The position numbers were made by a program, and so were the translations under genes. The notes below the pieces were generated by a model. It saw nothing but the letters and a program-made list of their open reading frames with translations, was not told where the DNA came from and searched no databases. Source: Candidatus Nomurabacteria bacterium (GTDB lineage: Bacteria; Patescibacteriota; Saccharimonadia; Saccharimonadales; VXPC01). From it: a stretch of DNA of 64,000 bases. The DNA lies in contig JACKGQ010000001.1 in NCBI GenBank assembly GCA_020631905.1, positions 690,165-754,164 of the forward strand, in the 5' to 3' direction. Shown in pieces: positions 1,987 to 42,508 of this stretch. Every line of letters begins with the position of its first letter. The stretch's first letter is position 1.

Positions 1987-3316
1987 GTTTGGTAGATTTA
2001 AGGTGAGTATTTAGTGCCGAACGTAATTCGAGTATCTCACCTCGAACAGGACCGATGATAGTACTAAAACCAAGCTTCTTGGCCTCTTTGTTACGTTTAT
2101 CTGCATATGTCACACTACGTACCTCACCACCCAGACCAACTTCACCATAGACAACCGTATCAGGATTAAGCGCTAAGCCCTTTACCGAACTAGCGATTGC
2201 CATGCATACGGCAAGGTCGGCGGCCGGATCGGTCAAATTTATGCCACTAGCAACGGATACATAGATGTCCGTTTTTGCTAAGGATAATTTCGTTCTTTTT
2301 TCTAGAACAGCCACTAGTAAATTCAGGCGATTTTGATTAATACCAACGGCAGTTCGTTTTGGATACCCAAACTCACTTGGATTTGTAAGTGCCTGTATCT
2401 CTACCAGCAGCGGGCGATTTCCCTCGACTGCCGCAAAAATTACAGATCCATCAACTAATATACGCTCAGCTAGCAATGCCTTCGAAGGATTATCTACAGC
2501 CACCAAACCGATTGGAGACATCTCTAATACGGCAACTTCATCGATGGAACCATAGCGATTCTTATTTGCGCGTAATAACTTAAATCCGGCGAACTTATCT
2601 CCTTCTAGTTGCATGACTACATCAACTATATGCTCAAGTATTTTAGGGCCAGCAATCGAACCTTCTTTTGTTACATGACCAACCAAAATTATACTTGTCT
2701 GAGTTTGTTTGGCTGCCGCGATAAGCATCTGTGCCGAACTAACAATTTGAGACACCCCACCTTGCGAACCAGTAACTGCGTTAGTAGATATAGTTTGGAT
2801 TGAATCGACAACTACTAGTTTATAGTCAGAAGACTTGATTGTGACCGTAATATCATCAGTGCTATTCGTACTGACTATATCGAGTTGATTTTTATCTAGT
2901 TTCAGACGTGCTGCCCGGGCAGCTACCTGATGCTCCGATTCTTCGCCGCTGACATATAACACCTTTGAATCCCTCGATACTCCAGCCGCTAACTGCATTA
3001 ATAGCGTACTTTTACCTATACCTGGTTGACCAGCTAATAGAATCACTGAACCTGCGACGATACCACCGCCAAGCACTTGATCAAGCTCTTCGAACTTTGT
3101 GGTTAACCGAGTAGTTTCGATCTGGGTTTTAGCTTCCGAGAGTTTGCTAACTTGAAGCGTTTTGCCAGACACTTGCTTGCCAGCCAGTACAAGATCAGAC
3201 GTTTCAAGTTTGTCTAAAGTACCCCACTCACCGCAATCAAAACACTTACCGCTCCAAGTACTAGATTGTGAACCACAATTTGTGCAAATATATGTTGTTT
3301 TTGGTTGCCTGGCCAT
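1979..3316 (-). CDS. radA: DNA repair protein RadA/Sms
   Basis: N-terminal C4 zinc ribbon (CTNCGSQSSTWSGKCFDCGEWGT), RecA-like Walker A (GQPGIGKST) and a Lon-like C-terminal domain. Length 445 aa. Confidence 0.93.
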   Translation of the reverse strand: MARQPKTTYICTNCGSQSSTWSGKCFDCGEWGTLDKLETSDLVLAGKQVSGKTLQVSKLSEAKTQIETTRLTTKFEELDQVLGGGIVAGSVILLAGQPGIGKSTLLMQLAAGVSRDSKVLYVSGEESEHQVAARAARLKLDKNQLDIVSTNSTDDITVTIKSSDYKLVVVDSIQTISTNAVTGSQGGVSQIVSSAQMLIAAAKQTQTSIILVGHVTKEGSIAGPKILEHIVDVVMQLEGDKFAGFKLLRANKNRYGSIDEVAVLEMSPIGLVAVDNPSKALLAERILVDGSVIFAAVEGNRPLLVEIQALTNPSEFGYPKRTAVGINQNRLNLLVAVLEKRTKLSLAKTDIYVSVASGINLTDPAADLAVCMAIASSVKGLALNPDTVVYGEVGLGGEVRSVTYADKRNKEAKKLGFSTIIGPVRGEILELRSALNTHLKSTKPK

Positions 3317-4281
3317 TACTTGGTCTCCAGTGATTTATAGTGACTATCTAAACTCTGGGCTAAGTTATTCTGTTGTACACCCAAAAGATTTCGCGCGTTA
3401 ACAATGTCATTATAATCCGAGATTAGTTGTTTTAAATTTTCGACAGCCTGATTATATATCTCTACAAGCCGATTATACTCAGGAACAGAATCGTTATATT
3501 TGCCGTACTCTTCAGATGCATAAAACAGATCAAGTTTTTGGCGTTTCTGATCTAGCACCTCAACCTGGTTTTCTATCGTGGCTTCTACTGATCTAATATT
3601 CAGAGATAGACTAACTAGTTGTTCATCATACTGAGCTATTTGTTTCTCTAGTTTAAGAAACACACCCTCATATCTTTGACTAGCTGCGACAACCTCCGAC
3701 CGATCGACAAAGTATTTAGAATAATAATCTTCCAGAAAGCTTGGCAAGTTCGCAACTTCTGTCCCAATAATTGAGTGTAGCTCATTAAAACGCGCCTCAT
3801 CCGAAAGATCACCATAGCTCTTGATAATTTGTGTGATTCTAGAGTTTACAATATTTGCTTCGGCGACTTTTAGCCAATCGTTTACTGATTGCTTTTCATC
3901 ACCACTGAGCCGAGCATAGGCAGCATGGAGCATTTCATGAGCTGCAGTTATTTGCTTTACATCTGAAAGTTCTGTCGCATCGACATTATATAGATAGATA
4001 TTTGTCCCATTATAGCAACCTAGAACCACCGACTTTTCTTTTTCGGGGCAATGCAGGTTAAATTCATCGGCCGTTAAGAGTTCAGGATGATTTACATAAA
4101 AAAGCTTACGGCCATAATCGTTCAAGCTAGCTTTATCTGCTAAATCAACAATCTCTGATCCAGGCTGGTATCCGCGCAATCTATACCAATCACCTATCTG
4201 ATATCTAAAAACGTAAATAATAAACGACAAAGTCAATGTCGTAATTAAACTAAATACGAATGCCAACCTCTTCATTAACAA
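3316..4281 (-). CDS. Hypothetical membrane-anchored protein with an HExxH motif (HEMLH) and a long C-terminal coiled coil; possible zincin-like metalloprotein
   Basis: N-terminal TM helix (FVFSLITTLTLSFIIYVF), then AAHEMLHAAY, then a heptad-rich C-terminus. No family recognised. Confidence 0.55.
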   Translation of the reverse strand: MLMKRLAFVFSLITTLTLSFIIYVFRYQIGDWYRLRGYQPGSEIVDLADKASLNDYGRKLFYVNHPELLTADEFNLHCPEKEKSVVLGCYNGTNIYLYNVDATELSDVKQITAAHEMLHAAYARLSGDEKQSVNDWLKVAEANIVNSRITQIIKSYGDLSDEARFNELHSIIGTEVANLPSFLEDYYSKYFVDRSEVVAASQRYEGVFLKLEKQIAQYDEQLVSLSLNIRSVEATIENQVEVLDQKRQKLDLFYASEEYGKYNDSVPEYNRLVEIYNQAVENLKQLISDYNDIVNARNLLGVQQNNLAQSLDSHYKSLETK

Positions 4282-4293
4282 ATATATTATACT

Positions 4294-6765
4294 CTATTCT
4301 GAGAGCTTCTCGAGAGTCGGTTTACCTAGCTTAAGGGTAGCTTTTAATACAGAATTCTCTTCGATATTACCTGCCAGTAGACCTTCTGCTATTAAGTCTT
4401 CGAGTTCTTCTTGGATTAAACGTCGCAGTGGTCGCACACCATTTTTGATATCAAACCCTTTGTCTACTAGCCAATGCTTAAGACTGGTAGTTGGTTTAAT
4501 GGCTAGCCTTCTTGCTAGTAGTCTCTGATTTAGGTTGTCTAGTTGAACATTAACTATCCTAGATACGTCTTTCTTTGTGAGTGCCCTGAATACAATGGTT
4601 TTATCAAACCTGTTTAATAACTCAGGTCTCATAAAACGTTTTAGTTCATCTTTAACTTTCGTCTGGTTTAGTTCGTGGAGTTTCTGAGACTCATCTAGTT
4701 CGCTTTTTGAATCAGCCGAGAAACCTAATGATACTTCTTTTTGTAATTTTTCCGCTCCAATATTGCTGGTTAATATGATTACTGTATTACTAAAATCTAC
4801 AACCCGACCCTTAGCATCAGTTAAGCGTCCGTCTTCCAAGATTTGTAATAGCACATTAAAGACATCTGGATGTGCCTTTTCGATTTCGTCGAACAGAACC
4901 AAACTATACGGCTGTCGCCTAATTTTTTCTGTCAATTGACCAGACTCTTCATAACCAACATACCCTGCCGGCGCTCCGACAAGTCTAGCGACCGTATGCC
5001 GCTCGCCAAACTCACTCATATCAATTTTTATCAAGGACTCCTCTCGACCATAAAATTCTTTAGCCAACGCCCTTGCAAGCTCAGTTTTGCCAACTCCGGT
5101 TGGCCCCAAGAACATAAAGCTACCGATTGGTCTACCCGACGAAGCGATACCACTTCGGCTACGACGAATAGCTTTGGCGACTGCTTCGAGTGCTTCAGTC
5201 TGGCCTATCACATGTTTTTCTAATCTTTTCTCGAGGCTTAACAAACTTTTAGCTTCGGACTTGACTACTTGTGAAACCGGAACTTGTGTCCATAAAGAAA
5301 TAACCGCAGCCAGATCATCAGAACTAAGCTGAAGTCGTTTACTTGATGGTTGTTGCCGCCGAGCGACCTGTAATGCCTCTTGGAGGTCTTTTATCTTCTG
5401 TTTGTAGCGAGCGGCCTTTTCGTAATCTTCTGAAGCGGCTGCTTCGTCCATGCGCATCGTCATTAGATGCAGATCTTTTAGTAGCTTGCGCTGTTTCGGA
5501 TCAGATTTACCGCGATCAACGCGAAGATGCGCTGCCGACTCATCTAGCAAGTCGATCGCCTTATCGGGCATGTATCGGTCATTTATATACCGATCACTTA
5601 ATGTAACTGCATCTTGTAAAACCTCATCACTCACGCTTATACCATGATAATCTTCATACTTGTGCTTCAGGCCACGGAGTATCGCCAAAGTTTCTTGCTT
5701 GTTGGTTTCGGGCACCATAATTGGCTGAAAACGTCTTTCAAGTGCAGCATCTTTTTCAATATGTTTTGTGTACTCATCAGTAGTGGTCGCACCAATTACC
5801 TGAATTTTGCCTCGGGCTAAAGCTGGTTTAAGAATATTGCCTGCATCGATGGCACCTTCAGCTGCACCAGCTCCGACAAGCAAATGCAGTTCGTCAATGA
5901 ATGCAATTGTACGGTCATCACTAGTCAACTCTTCTATGACTTTTTTTAATCTTTCTTCGAATTCACCACGATATTTTGTACCAGCGATCATCCCAGGAAG
6001 ATCGAGTAAGACTATTCTCTTGTCCAATAAACTATCAGGTACATCTTCTGTAATTATTTTTTGGGCTAGACCTTCAACGATTGCCGTCTTACCAACACCT
6101 GGCTCACCGATCAAAACTGGATTATTTTTGTTGCGTCGATTTAAGATTGTAATTGCTCGACGTATTTGTGATTCTCGTCCCACTACCGGATCTAGCTCGT
6201 TGGCTCTAGCTTTTGCAGTTAAGTCTGTGCCAAAGATATCTAAAGCAGTTTTTCCTTTTTTACTTTTTGAACTTTGGATTCCAGCCCTTTCGATTGTTTC
6301 AACACCTTGTTTGCCTAATAAACTTTCTACTACACTATTCAGACGATTTAAGTCGACATTCATGTCTTTTAGTAATAAGGACGCCCGTGCGTTTTTTTGA
6401 CTAATAAGACTATACAAGATATGTTCTGTGCCACACATATCTTGGTTAAACTCTTGAGCTATATCCCAACTCATCTTTAAGGTCAGCTTGGCTGTTTCAC
6501 TCAAACCCTTACTGCCAAGATTAATAACTAGTGTCCTAGGCGTTAAGTTAAGCGCCAATCTGGCACGATCATAAGTTACCCCGACATCGGATAGTAACTT
6601 GGCTCCGACCGACCCTCCTTGCCTTAACACACCCAGTAAGATATGTTCTGTACCTACATAAGCAGAACCAAGCTCAGTAGCAATTGCGTCAGCAAATCTC
6701 AAGCTCTTAAGCGCGTTATCGGTGAAGTTATTCAAAAACTCTTCGAAATCTGGATTAAACTGCAT
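4294..6765 (-). CDS. clpC: ATP-dependent Clp protease ATP-binding subunit ClpC (two AAA+ domains)
   Basis: Clp_N repeats, two Walker A motifs (GEPGVGKT, GPTGVGKT) and a UVR-like middle motif. Length 823 aa. Confidence 0.92.
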   Translation of the reverse strand: MQFNPDFEEFLNNFTDNALKSLRFADAIATELGSAYVGTEHILLGVLRQGGSVGAKLLSDVGVTYDRARLALNLTPRTLVINLGSKGLSETAKLTLKMSWDIAQEFNQDMCGTEHILYSLISQKNARASLLLKDMNVDLNRLNSVVESLLGKQGVETIERAGIQSSKSKKGKTALDIFGTDLTAKARANELDPVVGRESQIRRAITILNRRNKNNPVLIGEPGVGKTAIVEGLAQKIITEDVPDSLLDKRIVLLDLPGMIAGTKYRGEFEERLKKVIEELTSDDRTIAFIDELHLLVGAGAAEGAIDAGNILKPALARGKIQVIGATTTDEYTKHIEKDAALERRFQPIMVPETNKQETLAILRGLKHKYEDYHGISVSDEVLQDAVTLSDRYINDRYMPDKAIDLLDESAAHLRVDRGKSDPKQRKLLKDLHLMTMRMDEAAASEDYEKAARYKQKIKDLQEALQVARRQQPSSKRLQLSSDDLAAVISLWTQVPVSQVVKSEAKSLLSLEKRLEKHVIGQTEALEAVAKAIRRSRSGIASSGRPIGSFMFLGPTGVGKTELARALAKEFYGREESLIKIDMSEFGERHTVARLVGAPAGYVGYEESGQLTEKIRRQPYSLVLFDEIEKAHPDVFNVLLQILEDGRLTDAKGRVVDFSNTVIILTSNIGAEKLQKEVSLGFSADSKSELDESQKLHELNQTKVKDELKRFMRPELLNRFDKTIVFRALTKKDVSRIVNVQLDNLNQRLLARRLAIKPTTSLKHWLVDKGFDIKNGVRPLRRLIQEELEDLIAEGLLAGNIEENSVLKATLKLGKPTLEKLSE

Positions 6766-40642: not shown

Positions 40643-40941
40643 GCCGAAATCACTATGGAACCCGGGCGTCTTTACCCGGGTTCTGGAAAGCGTTCCCTAG
40701 AGGTGTCCACCTCATCACTTCCGTAACTTAATTATACTCCCGATTGCAAGCCATGCCGTGATAAACAGCATAGCCATTTTATAATGATTGAGTTATTCCA
40801 CAAAAACCACTAAAACTTAATGAATTTTGGGGAATCGGTGTTGGAAACCGATACTAAAAGTGGCTCAATTGTGAGGGAGCTTTGGTAGCTCAACCTCAAA
40901 CAAGAACTCTACTTTTAGGAAGATTCATCCCCTTCACCTAC

Positions 40942-41091
40942 CTACATGTACCTCAGGTCCTTGGGACGCTGATTATGCGCCTCCATTGATCGGACGTAAG
41001 CACCGTAGGCCTTCTGGACGTCAGGGTGACTGCGATCACCACCACACTTCTGGAGTGCGCGCTTGACCGCCTCTTCCTGGTTTCCTGCCAT
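40942..41091 (-). CDS. Candidate small protein (49 aa, MAGNQEEAVKRALQKCGGDRSHPDVQKAYGAYVRSMEAHNQRPKDLRYM), GC-rich, strong RBS
   Basis: Below the ORF-track size cutoff. Found by reverse-complementing by hand. AAGGAGGTGA lies 5 nt upstream of ATG. TAG stop. About 58% GC against a 42-46% background. Confidence 0.4.
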   Translation of the reverse strand: MAGNQEEAVKRALQKCGGDRSHPDVQKAYGAYVRSMEAHNQRPKDLRYM

Positions 41092-41246
41092 TTTGCTCAC
41101 CTCCTTTCAAGAGGCTCGAGAAGTGCAGCTGGTTGCTGCATCTGGGGAAATGAATAAGAATCTTTGCCTAGAGAGCTGGCACCCGGTGCCAGTGATTGCC
41201 CGCTCGGGGCGCCAGCTCTACTAGGCTGTACGGCCGAAGCCATACG

Positions 41247-41417
41247 AGCCGCCGGGAGGAATCGAACCTCCGACTATCGGTCGATGTGTCCGCACGTGAT
41301 GCGGTATGAATTTCCGGCCTTCCGTCTGCTAGCCTCCGTGGACAAGCAGACATACTGCAGGAGTCCTAAGGTAACTACAACGATCGACCGAAACTCTACC
41401 GACTGAGTTACGACGGC
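41247..41417 (-). tRNA. tRNA-like gene whose anticodon arm is replaced by a ~100-nt structured insertion closed by a 9-bp helix; isotype unresolved
   Basis: Minus strand reads GCCGTCG-TA-ACTC-AGTCGGTA-GAGT-T-TCGGT...[insertion]...ACCGA-TAGTC-GGAGG-TTCGATT-CCTCC-CGGCGGC-T. The acceptor stem is 7 bp with one G-U. D-arm, variable loop and T-arm are canonical. CCA is not encoded. Confidence 0.5.
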
Positions 41418-41426
41418 GAGTATCAC

Positions 41427-41462
41427 GTGGTTGTGCCCGAGTGAACACCCGGGCACAACCAC
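41427..41462. repeat. 13-bp perfect inverted repeat (GTGGTTGTGCCCG...CGGGCACAACCAC) with a 10-nt loop, 10 nt upstream of the tRNA-like gene
   Basis: Verified by reverse complement. GC-rich stem with no U-run. Confidence 0.7.
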
Positions 41463-41574
41463 TTCGGGGCAGGCGCAAACCTTGCGAACGCAGAGCTGTG
41501 AAGGCGGTTAAACCTACTCTGTGAACTTGAATGAGGTCTGCATACGGGCGGAATCCGTTGCCATTGCACCCTAG

Positions 41575-41649
41575 CAGTCTCGACGGGATTTGAACCCGTG
41601 ACCTCTGGCGTGTGATGCCAGCGTGAACTCCAGACTTCACCACGAGACT
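41575..41649 (-). tRNA. tRNA-Val (anticodon CAC)
   Basis: Hand-folded cloverleaf: acceptor AGTCTCG/CGAGACT, D-stem GTGA/TCAC, anticodon stem CTGGC/GCCAG, loop AUCACAC, T-arm ACGGG-TTCAAAT-CCCGT, discriminator G. CCA not encoded. Confidence 0.8.
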
Positions 41650-41651
41650 GG

Positions 41652-41727
41652 TGGTCGAGGTGGGTATCGATCCCACATACCTCCAGCTTTTCAGGCTGGT
41701 ACTCTGAACCTCCTGAGCTACTCGACC
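41652..41727 (-). tRNA. tRNA-Phe (anticodon GAA)
   Basis: Acceptor GGTCGAG/CTCGACC, D-stem GCTC/GAGT, anticodon stem CCAGC/GCTGG, loop CUGAAAA, T-arm GTGGG-ATCGATA-CCCAC (A54), discriminator A. CC follows, and the terminal A is nt 1 of tRNA-Val. Confidence 0.75.
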
Positions 41728-41973
41728 GGGTGGAGTCTTACCGAACAACGCATGCATGCGGGTGTAACACCACAAGCCTGTACGGCGTCTCCGCCAGACA
41801 GTTGCGCCTTTCGGCAGTACTCCAATGGCGGTTACCCGCCACATTCAACTGGTACCACAAAGTGGGCCCAGCCGGAACATTTCCCAGTTCCTAACGTTTG
41901 ATTCGGTCTCCAGCTGTCTGGAATAACCGTATCGGCACGCTAACCTCCCCCACCGGTTTCTACGGCGAGGTAG
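41728..41973 (-). ncRNA. Unassigned GC-rich structured segment between tRNA-Phe and tRNA-Glu (candidate ncRNA or processed spacer)
   Basis: 246 nt with several short GC hairpins (GGCGGGTAACCGCC, GGCGGAGACGCC). No ORF with an RBS. No match recognised by eye to RNase P, SRP or tmRNA consensus motifs. Confidence 0.25.
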
Positions 41974-42047
41974 CACCCCTGACAGGATTCGAACCTGTGC
42001 TTACGCCTTGAGAGGGCGCTGTTTTAGACCAACTAAACTACAGGAGC
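41974..42047 (-). tRNA. tRNA-Glu (anticodon CUC)
   Basis: Acceptor GCTCCTG/CAGGGGT with two G-U pairs. D-stem GTTT/AAAC, anticodon stem GCGCC/GGCGT, loop CUCUCAA, T-arm ACAGG-TTCGAAT-CCTGT, discriminator G. Confidence 0.7.
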
Positions 42048-42108
42048 ATTGCTTGAGAGAACTGCGAAGCTAAACAACACATGTTGTATAGCTACAGCAA
42101 CCCCTCTG

Positions 42109-42181
42109 TCGGGCGACCCCGTTTCGATCGGGGGACCTTGCGAGTTGTACTCGCATGCTCTGCCGGCTGAGCTACCGCCCG
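42109..42181 (-). tRNA. tRNA with atypical anticodon ACA (nominally Cys-decoding); isotype uncertain
   Basis: Acceptor CGGGCGG/TCGCCCG (C1-G72), D-arm TA-GCTC-AGCCGGCA-GAGC, anticodon stem TGCGA/TCGCA, loop GUACAAC, T-arm CCCCG-ATCGAAA-CGGGG (A54), discriminator A. Confidence 0.55.
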
Positions 42182-42508
42182 GTAAGGCTTGCCGATTCTG
42201 CTAGTGAGCTATTCCGCACTCCAACGTGCACTACGATCTGCGCAGCACACCCTAGCTATCTTTACCGGCCAACCCGTTCATTTGGGGCGGCAACACCTTC
42301 CCCAAACTAATCCAAATCACTATGTGGTGATCTCGATTAGCCTGGAGAATGTTGGTATTAAAAAATTCTTATTCTTTAATTTTAATGAATCTTTTCTCGT
42401 CAAAAAAACGAGAAGTTTCCAACACCTTGTAAAAAAACACCTCACCAGGAGCAAAGGCTCCTCAACGAGGATGCCACTATTATACACTCACCAGGGGTTA
42501 AAATCAAG

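Follow-up and report, generated by a model that had tools for sequence, protein, structure and literature searches.

What is a gene that has the body of a tRNA and, where the anticodon should be, a long structured arm? The question arises at positions 41247-41417 (minus strand) of a 64,000-nucleotide (nt) stretch of contig JACKGQ010000001.1, hereafter the window. A preliminary description, made from the letters of the window, had seen there a tRNA-like gene with an insertion of ~100 nt in place of the anticodon arm, and had offered three explanations: a new bulge-helix-bulge (BHB)-like tRNA intron, a tRNA-like non-coding RNA with a specialised long arm, or a tRNA that has been disrupted. We confirm that the minus-strand RNA from 41417 to 41247 is a complete cloverleaf in which a structured arm replaces the 7-nt anticodon loop. 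The gene is real and under selection, matches no curated RNA family, and is tRNA-derived but most likely of a kind not yet catalogued. Among the three explanations the second fits best, the BHB-like intron is unsupported and the disrupted tRNA is disfavoured. We give about an even chance to the reading that the gene encodes a working tRNA-like RNA which does not decode and whose arm is specialised.

A cloverleaf with an arm in place of the anticodon loop

The whole gene (41247..41417, minus strand) runs from G1 at 41417 to the discriminator U73 at 41247, and CCA is not encoded; these limits come from the sequence, the fold, the intron mode of ARAGORN and a homologue in a related genome. It reads GCCGUCG-UA-ACUC-AGUCGGUA-GAGU-U-UCGGU-(105 nt)-ACCGA-UAGUC-GGAGG-UUCGAUU-CCUCC-CGGCGGC-U. 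The 5' half (41387..41417, minus strand) consists of the acceptor 5' strand, U8 and A9, the D arm ACUC-AGUCGGUA-GAGU (with A14, G15, G18, G19 and A21), U26 and the anticodon-stem 5' strand UCGGU. The 3' body (41247..41276, minus strand) consists of the variable loop UAGUC (with G46 and C48), the T arm GGAGG-UUCGAUU-CCUCC, the acceptor 3' strand and U73. The 7-bp acceptor stem, the D arm (ACTC/GAGT in DNA letters, with a GG loop), the 5-nt variable loop and the T arm are thus all where they had been placed by hand-folding, in the sequence as in the ViennaRNA fold. One of the seven pairs of the acceptor stem, GCCGUCG/CGGCGGC, is U.G. The nucleotides of the tertiary contacts, read off the sequence, are all canonical (U8, A14, G15:C48, G18, G19, A21, G46, U54-U55-C56 and A58), G15:C48 being the R15:Y48 Levitt pair.

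The strands of the 5-bp anticodon stem are separated by 105 nt. The stem, UCGGU/ACCGA, is prolonged by CGAU/AUCG into a perfect 9-bp helix, UCGGUCGAU/AUCGACCGA, whose 3' strand (AUCG plus ACCGA, 41277..41285, minus strand) pairs with 41391-41383; the helix encloses 97 nt, in line with the ~100 nt first reported. The minimum-free-energy structure (-68.6 kcal/mol) is the cloverleaf plus the arm, and includes both of the internal hairpins proposed earlier, GUCUGCU...AGCAGAC and CCGCA...UGCGG. This stability is above chance (z = -3.4), and none of 200 shuffles was as stable.

Standard tRNA finders give a divided answer. Default ARAGORN does not call the candidate, and neither does the Rfam tRNA model RF00005 (gathering threshold 29 bits) in the window, in a 1.3-kb segment or in a 196-nt segment. 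ARAGORN with introns allowed reports positions 41246-41417 as 'tRNA-Asp(atc) i(39,98)'. This call is weak evidence on its own because intron-type calls also arise in shuffled windows (3 in 20 dinucleotide shuffles, ~0.15 per shuffled 64-kb window). The strong evidence for a gene is its homologue with compensatory changes, together with its place at the end of a same-strand tRNA cluster. No known Rfam family covers the insert, either in the whole window at gathering threshold or in the 1.3-kb and 196-nt segments at E ≤ 10, with all families searched; there was likewise no match to a group I intron, transfer-messenger RNA (tmRNA), Y RNA or small ribozyme. A hit of this sort had been named beforehand as a result that would overturn the claim.

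A diverged homologue keeps the fold

A homologue with the same architecture lies at 2358-2475 of locus L074, in a genome whose ribosomal protein L25 is 67% identical. RF00005 gives it 56.8 bits in an alignment that spans the model from end to end, 52 nt standing where the 7-nt anticodon loop would be. Between the two copies, 12 of the 21 stem pairs are unchanged, one has changed on one side, eight have changed on both sides with pairing kept, and none is broken. The two-sided changes are spread over all four stems (acceptor 3, D 1, anticodon 2, T 2). U8 and A9 are identical, as are 7 of 8 D-loop, 7 of 7 T-loop and 4 of 5 variable-loop positions. Selection that acts on an RNA folded like a tRNA leaves such a pattern, and it argues strongly against a decaying pseudogene. 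Since nine of the 21 stem pairs differ, recent horizontal transfer between the two copies is unlikely.

A dead tRNA gene, split by a mobile-element remnant or a degenerate intron and now drifting, would sit well in an accessory island that holds several aberrant tRNA-like genes and that some relatives lack altogether, and would account for the failure of Rfam to find the candidate. Drift is difficult to reconcile with eight compensatory double changes, no broken pair and near-invariant D, T and variable loops at 67% L25 identity, and the invariant block in the insert (see below) also speaks against it. Nor is there a second copy of the insert within the window or a visible target-site duplication, and we rejected a repeat or miniature inverted-repeat transposable element (MITE)-like multi-copy insertion because no further copy occurs in the window. 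We consider a dead gene quite improbable.

The comparison with relatives, proposed earlier as a check, is not wholly in favour of the claim. The L074 genome keeps the interrupted gene. In the more distant L077, the slot of the candidate is filled by an uninterrupted tRNA-Asp(GUC)-like gene, the kind of finding that had been named as contrary, although its body is not clearly orthologous. The uninterrupted and not clearly orthologous L077 gene indicates that the insert is specific to one lineage.

The body of the L074 homologue has its closest likeness in phage genes annotated as tRNA-Gly, and its acceptor set (G1-C72, C2-G71, G3-C70, U73) is that of tRNA-Gly. The candidate's body is less diagnostic of tRNA identity. 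Charging of the tRNA-like RNA is conceivable.

No anticodon can be rebuilt

Could the interrupted gene still yield a decoding tRNA? We enumerated the possible splice points by hand, joining x nt of the 5' flank to 7-x nt of the 3' flank. The base that falls at position 33 is A or G for the candidate and, for L074, G or C; U never arises. In neither copy can an anticodon loop that has U33 and purine 37 be rebuilt, as had been claimed for the candidate, and in the reading that we favour the RNA cannot read codons. The two intron-mode readings of ARAGORN also conflict, with Asp-AUC (G33) for the candidate and Ile-GAU (C33) for L074.

Judged as a tRNA, the candidate has the four-stem cloverleaf and the conserved tertiary nucleotides, which are kept in L074 with the eight compensatory pairs; a 7-nt anticodon loop with U33 and purine 37 is absent. 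With canonical bacterial tRNAs (RF00005), and tRNA-Gly especially, the candidate shares the 7-bp acceptor stem, the D and T arms, the 5-nt variable loop, the tertiary nucleotides and a setting in a tRNA cluster. Canonical tRNAs have a readable 7-nt anticodon loop, whereas the stem strands are 105 nt apart in the candidate and 52 nt apart in L074.

Patescibacteria carry introns in the anticodon loops of their tRNAs with unusual frequency (PMC13011429), which raises the possibility of a decoding tRNA with a new, small intron that is removed by protein machinery or a trans-acting ribozyme, the halves being re-ligated. The known introns of this phylum are full self-splicing group I introns inserted from 33/34 to 36/37, with U at the 5' exon's end and with a terminal G, and their removal restores the anticodon; for tRNA-Asn as well as tRNA-Asp the insertion is at 35/36 (PMC13011429). 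The candidate resembles these genes in its phylum, in the insertion at the anticodon loop and in being missed or mis-called by standard finders, and differs from them in having no ribozyme core or Rfam match, inserts of 52-105 nt and no legal loop that could be restored. The group I core model RF00028 has no match at E ≤ 10 at the candidate or at E ≤ 0.1 in the relatives, and the published boundary criteria (PMC13011429) give no exon-intron boundary that is consistent between the candidate and L074. With no core and inserts of 105 and 52 nt, a group I intron is ruled out, as the preliminary description had argued from size. The catalytic core of group I introns (P3-P9) typically takes at least 200 nt, and the L074 insert in particular is far too short.

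A BHB intron fares no better. The BHB junction consists of two 3-nt bulges around a 4-bp helix. As in archaeal and eukaryal BHB introns and split tRNAs, a helix prolongs the anticodon stem around the insert, but the candidate is in a bacterium, has no paired bulges and has exons that yield no legal loop. The helix of the candidate is an uninterrupted 9 bp, and that of L074 has a single 4-nt bulge, in the 5' strand only. Bacteria are not known to have a splicing endonuclease. This part of the preliminary description is not supported.

The new-intron hypothesis does have points in its favour: the tRNA body is intact and under selection, ARAGORN accepts both copies in intron mode, and another island-bearing relative, L085, has a tRNA-Gly(GCC)-like gene (3283-3371; Rfam tRNA 49.4 bits) with the loop A-U-G-C-C-A, then a 15-nt hairpin CCGGAUGCAUCCGGG, then U. 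The hairpin lies at exactly 37/38, the intron position of archaea and eukaryotes, here in a bacterium, and the loop would be legal if it were removed. For the candidate and L074, no pair of splice points gives U33/R37, the ARAGORN readings disagree, no group I core, Rfam match or BHB is present, the L074 insert is 52 nt long, and the group I hallmarks of the phylum (U at the exon end, terminal G; PMC13011429) do not fit. A decoding tRNA with a spliced intron is accordingly unlikely, and nothing speaks for a novel splicing route that depends on protein.

Among the known non-decoding RNAs, the candidate is not a tmRNA, in agreement with the preliminary description: the ARAGORN tmRNA search was null, the Rfam tmRNA model matches only the T arm, at 8.2 bits, and a normal D stem is present. 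Close analogues are YrlA and other tRNA mimics (tmRNA, mascRNA and viral tRNA-like structures), which likewise combine an acceptor/T/D module with a long helical arm in the place of the anticodon arm and do not decode. In YrlA the RNA ends lie within the long stem and the acceptor is closed, a permuted topology. The acceptor stem of the candidate is the open end, its predicted topology is not permuted, it has no tag reading frame, and in Rfam it matches none of YrlA, Y RNA and tmRNA; YrlA and Y RNA were thus set aside.

An invariant block in a variable arm

If the arm is not an intron, what does it hold? At the 5' side of both inserts stands a 22-nt block, AUCGUUGUAGUUACCUUAGGAC (41363..41384, minus strand, in the candidate), that is identical in the candidate and L074 despite their diverged tRNA bodies. 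The extension helix takes up its first bases (AU in the candidate and, in L074, AUC), and for the remainder the prediction is little or no pairing. Insert length is not the same (105 vs 52 nt), and a ~50-nt hairpin, UCC UG ... GUCUGCU-UGUCCACGGAGGCU-AGCAGAC ... GGA (41313..41362, minus strand), is specific to the candidate and is not found in the L074 homologue. The extension helix and a small terminal hairpin are present in both copies with different sequences. The helix is CGAU/AUCG, contiguous with the stem, in the candidate, and GUAUC/GAUAC after a 4-nt bulge in L074; the terminal hairpin, directly before the 3' strand of the closing helix, is CCGCA-UCACG-UGCGG in the candidate (41290..41304, minus strand) and CUGC-UUCGU-GCAG in L074.

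The core of the block, ACCTTAGGAC, was found in island-bearing loci only, every time on the tRNA strand. A 10-nt core, ACCUUAGGAC, is also confined to such loci, and in L077 it lies within an ordinary hairpin outside any tRNA, which suggests that the block is a separable module able to exist without a tRNA body. A metagenome scan with GTTGTAGTTACCTTAGGAC gave one match, a chance occurrence in a tandem repeat of an unrelated contig, and a viral scan for the block gave none; no true homologue came from either. Exact complements of the block of at least 6 nt in the island are not at homologous positions. A likeness of the block to loop E of 5S rRNA and to the leader of the L25 gene, spotted by eye, was too loose to count.

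Insertions in rRNA are common in this phylum, and the perfect 9-bp helix that closes the candidate's insert invites the idea that the arm is an intervening sequence of the rRNA type, excised by a double-strand-specific RNase without re-ligation, the tRNA halves being held together by the stems. Nine base pairs are short for RNase III, however, the helix of L074 is broken by its 4-nt bulge, and excision would throw away the only invariant part of the insert. We regard this as the least probable of the explanations weighed here.

The gene ends an island of tRNA-shaped RNAs

The locus is part of a Candidatus Saccharibacteria (TM7) chromosome and not of a phage. The relatives of its PheT all belong to Candidatus Saccharibacteria/Saccharimonadales, at identities of up to 49%, and the eight flanking proteins that were scanned are PheS, PheT, L25, an ABC transporter, an FKBP isomerase, a thioredoxin-reductase-like protein and two proteins without a family match. 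A phage origin was rejected: the 1.6-kb cluster has no phage match apart from one generic tRNA, and the viral scan for the 22-nt block was null.

Between pheT and the L25 gene lie five genes on one strand, of which the candidate comes last. The four upstream members (41574..42181, minus strand as a group) are a tRNA-like 'Cys(ACA)' gene with a 6-bp anticodon stem and a 5-nt loop (42108-42181), tRNA-Glu(CUC) (41973-42047), tRNA-Phe(GAA) (41649-41727) and tRNA-Val(CAC) (41574-41649). Spacers between the genes are structured and 60-245 nt long, that between Phe and Val excepted: tRNA-Phe encodes CCA, and its final A (41649) is the first base of tRNA-Val, a one-base overlap. The G+C content of the cluster is 0.51, against ~0.44 around it.

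This cluster forms a discrete island of ~1.6 kb (40835-42428, minus strand), bounded by an inverted repeat. Its left copy is AAGGUGUUGGAAA (42416..42428) and its right copy UUUCCAACACCGA (40835..40847), both on the minus strand (AAGGUGUUGGAAAC ... GUUUCCAACACCGA); the repeat measures 12-14 bp (GGUGUUGGAAAC / GUUUCCAACACC). Its inner bases covary, with the compensatory variants GGAUAC/GUAUCC in L077 and GGAAAUC/GAUUUCC in L080. Comparable islands occur in four other lineages (L074-76, L077, L080-82 and L085-86), as units at L074 1453-2908, L077 42-1523, L080 1665-2489 and, twice in tandem, L085 1482-2027 and 2483-4096. Most relatives lack the island, among them L079, L083/84, L087 and L089-91, and the empty site in L079 has no copy of the repeat. 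The two L085 units and the repeat-free L079 site indicate that the repeats are part of one discrete unit, which a genome either has entire or lacks. The repeat may act as an RNA processing stem or at the DNA level. In the pheT region of 72 Saccharibacteria species representatives we found no cluster, no tRNAs downstream of pheT and no intron-type call.

Directly after the pheT stop there is a promoter-like TTGATT-17-TATAAT (42432-42507 region, minus strand); after it come a terminator-like hairpin that has a U7 run and then the left repeat. An inner hairpin that precedes the left repeat, GAGC-nnnn-GCUC, is conserved, being found also in L074, L077 and L080. This hairpin region could be an attenuator of the island.

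At the 3' end of the island lies an open reading frame (ORF) of 49 amino acids (MAGNQ..., 40942..41091, minus strand). ORFs of 45-50 amino acids (MSGNQW.aY.RA...) end the island in the window, in L074 (2646-2786), in L077 (1273-1410) and in the first unit of L085 (1838-1990), preceded by GAAAGGAGGUGA(UC), a ribosome-binding site that is complementary to at least 12 bases of the 16S rRNA 3' end (GAAAGGAGGUGAUC). The small ORF of L080 is another one, and the second L085 unit showed none. The ORF matches no Pfam or PHROG family, and a collection of 5.8 billion proteins gave two matches only, itself and that of L077. L074, L077 and the first L085 unit likewise have a tRNA or tRNA-like gene, of differing type, at ~170-200 nt upstream of their small ORF.

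Defective anticodon arms are not confined to the candidate. A tRNA-like family with C1-G72/A73, a 6-7-bp anticodon stem and a 4-6-nt loop has members in the window (42108-42181, minus strand), L074 (1726-1800), L077 (358-434) and L085 (3401-3475), with A at T-loop position 54 in the window and L085 copies. ARAGORN calls its members 'Cys(ACA)', 'Val(AAC)' or '???'; Rfam does not call the window copy and gives 48-50 bits to those of the three relatives. The family has the look of tRNA mimics without an anticodon. Other island members that cannot decode are the tRNA-Gly(GCC)-like gene with its 15-nt hairpin after position 37 and a Glu-like gene with an oversized loop. The candidate is the most extreme of a set of tRNA-shaped RNAs whose anticodon end varies freely.

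The variation is not limited to loop size. One tRNA body (GUGGUGAAGUnUGGAGUUCACG...) has the anticodon CAC (Val) in the window (41574-41649, minus strand) and CUC (Glu) in L074 (1801-1876), which we read from the sequences as an anticodon switch between orthologous island genes. Accessory tRNA arrays in phages, mobile elements and cyanobacteria, where the gene arrays are long (PMC8421152), are similarly dense, accessory, variable among relatives and rich in non-standard members and anticodon switches. The island differs from them in its small size, its covarying 12-14-bp inverted repeat, its long structured spacers, its terminal small ORF and its members without a usable anticodon loop.

Long inter-tRNA spacers recur in the window (the 245-nt Glu-Phe spacer, 41728-41972, minus strand), L074 (1877-2142), L085 (~2892-3282) and L077 (~435-672). 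They share the motifs GGRACUGGGWAAUGUUCC and AUGUGGCnGG...CCnGCCAYUGG and a terminal CCACCC directly before the next tRNA, and appear structured. No Rfam family matched the spacer, and the automatic alignment and consensus fold of four islands were too poor to read covariation from. Directly upstream of the candidate there is a long hairpin, GGUUGUGCCCGGG...CUCGGGCACAACC, without a U-run (41427..41462, minus strand); L074 has a hairpin of other sequence at the same position (~2286-2345), which suggests a conserved structural element of the precursor. An ORF of 171 amino acids across tRNA-Phe, tRNA-Val and the candidate (41329-41844, minus strand, equal to L001 2727-3242) is a called protein in the public assembly; it has no family match, and we take it to be spurious with near certainty.

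Upstream of the L25 gene, a conserved element of ~70 nt consists of GGAAGUGAUGAGGUGGAnnnCUCUAGGnAACnnUUUCC and then a G+C-rich hairpin, with a U-run after it in some genomes. It is found at ~40657-40724 (minus strand) in the window and at L074 ~3047-3111, L077 ~1667-1734, L079 ~5843-5910, L084 ~4346-4410 and L085 ~4237-4300, thus with or without the island. By eye it resembles loop E and helix IV of 5S rRNA, the binding site of L25. It may be an autoregulatory leader or a small RNA; the search of the whole window returned no Rfam family at gathering score for it.

Discussion

So, is the candidate more than a place at which to cut a transcript? The tRNA-shaped body might serve only as a processing signal, recruiting RNase P and the 3' enzymes to cut a polycistronic island transcript, with the arm as a functionless expansion that is tolerated. 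The layout of the island would suit such punctuation: tRNA and tRNA-like genes alternate with structured spacers, the small ORF comes last, the slot before it is filled by different tRNA types across genomes, anticodon arms are dispensable or defective in many members, and the insert varies in length. A neutral expansion is harder to square with a 22-nt block that is identical while nine of 21 stem pairs differ, and whose core turns up again, in a different setting, in a third genome; compensatory changes are also seen in the D and anticodon stems, unneeded for processing. We consider this processing-only role somewhat unlikely, although less so than an intron or a dead gene.

The reading that we favour, a functional tRNA-like RNA that does not decode, could work as follows. 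Transcription of the island would start at the promoter that directly follows pheT. The tRNA-shaped body would be recognised by RNase P at its 5' end and by a 3' endo- or exonuclease and the CCA-adding enzyme, and this processing would release the tRNA-like RNA and set the 5' end of the downstream mRNA for the small ORF. The body would then form a stable scaffold that presents the invariant element AUCGUUGUAGUUACCUUAGGAC to an RNA or protein partner. Along the arm, the closing helix that prolongs the anticodon stem would be followed by the 22-nt, mostly single-stranded element, the variable hairpin region and the small terminal hairpin. The specialised arm of the preliminary description finds its support in the eight compensatory pairs, the absence of broken ones, the invariant block and the lack of a legal loop.

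Several points weigh against this reading. While the fold, the covariation, the invariant block, the absence of a legal anticodon loop and the island context are seen directly, it is from them that we infer transcription, processing and a role as a scaffold or in binding a partner. The block is present in no more than two independent sequences (that of the candidate and that of L074-76, taken as one lineage), so it gives no covariation signal, and its single-stranded state is a prediction. No partner for the block was found inside the island, where the best duplex energies were no better than those of shuffled blocks. Against helix 69-71 of 23S rRNA, in the E. coli / I-CeuI-site sequence, the block forms 13 pairs including one G-U, and in a second, hand-aligned register 14 pairs with two G-U. 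With G-U pairs allowed this complementarity is not significant, since runs of at least 13 occur for 13% of shuffled blocks against 4.5 kb of random sequence, and we keep it as a lead and not as evidence. Because the acceptor and T arms suffice for both RNase P and RNase Z, a processing role leaves the kept D and anticodon stems unexplained. The tRNA content of the host was read within the window, and a canonical tRNA of the same identity may lie elsewhere in the genome.

A broader and more tentative proposal, which we put forward as a possibility, is that the gene belongs to an undescribed, Saccharibacteria-specific RNA island that reuses tRNA bodies as scaffolds for effector modules, the block being one module that pairs with or binds a cellular partner. 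Such an island would comprise a promoter, an attenuator-like hairpin, a covarying long-range repeat, canonical tRNAs, anticodon-less tRNA-shaped RNAs, conserved and structured spacers, and a tiny ORF whose ribosome-binding site is exceptionally strong. Leads for the partner of the block may be helix 69-71 of 23S rRNA, with its 13-14 complementary nt, and the 5S-binding protein L25, whose gene and 5S-like leader adjoin the island.

Saccharibacteria and other Patescibacteria have tiny genomes and yet carry insertions in their rRNAs and group I introns in their tRNAs. Censuses of tRNAs in the phylum can miss or mis-assign genes like the candidate, as the ARAGORN readings Asp-AUC and Ile-GAU illustrate. 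If our reading is true, it flags a whole island of structured RNAs that present annotation misses or mis-calls, here with a 171-amino-acid hypothetical protein across the cluster. A selected tRNA body with its anticodon loop swapped for a conserved arm would then be a new bacterial reuse of the tRNA fold, as a scaffold or processing handle and not as an adaptor.

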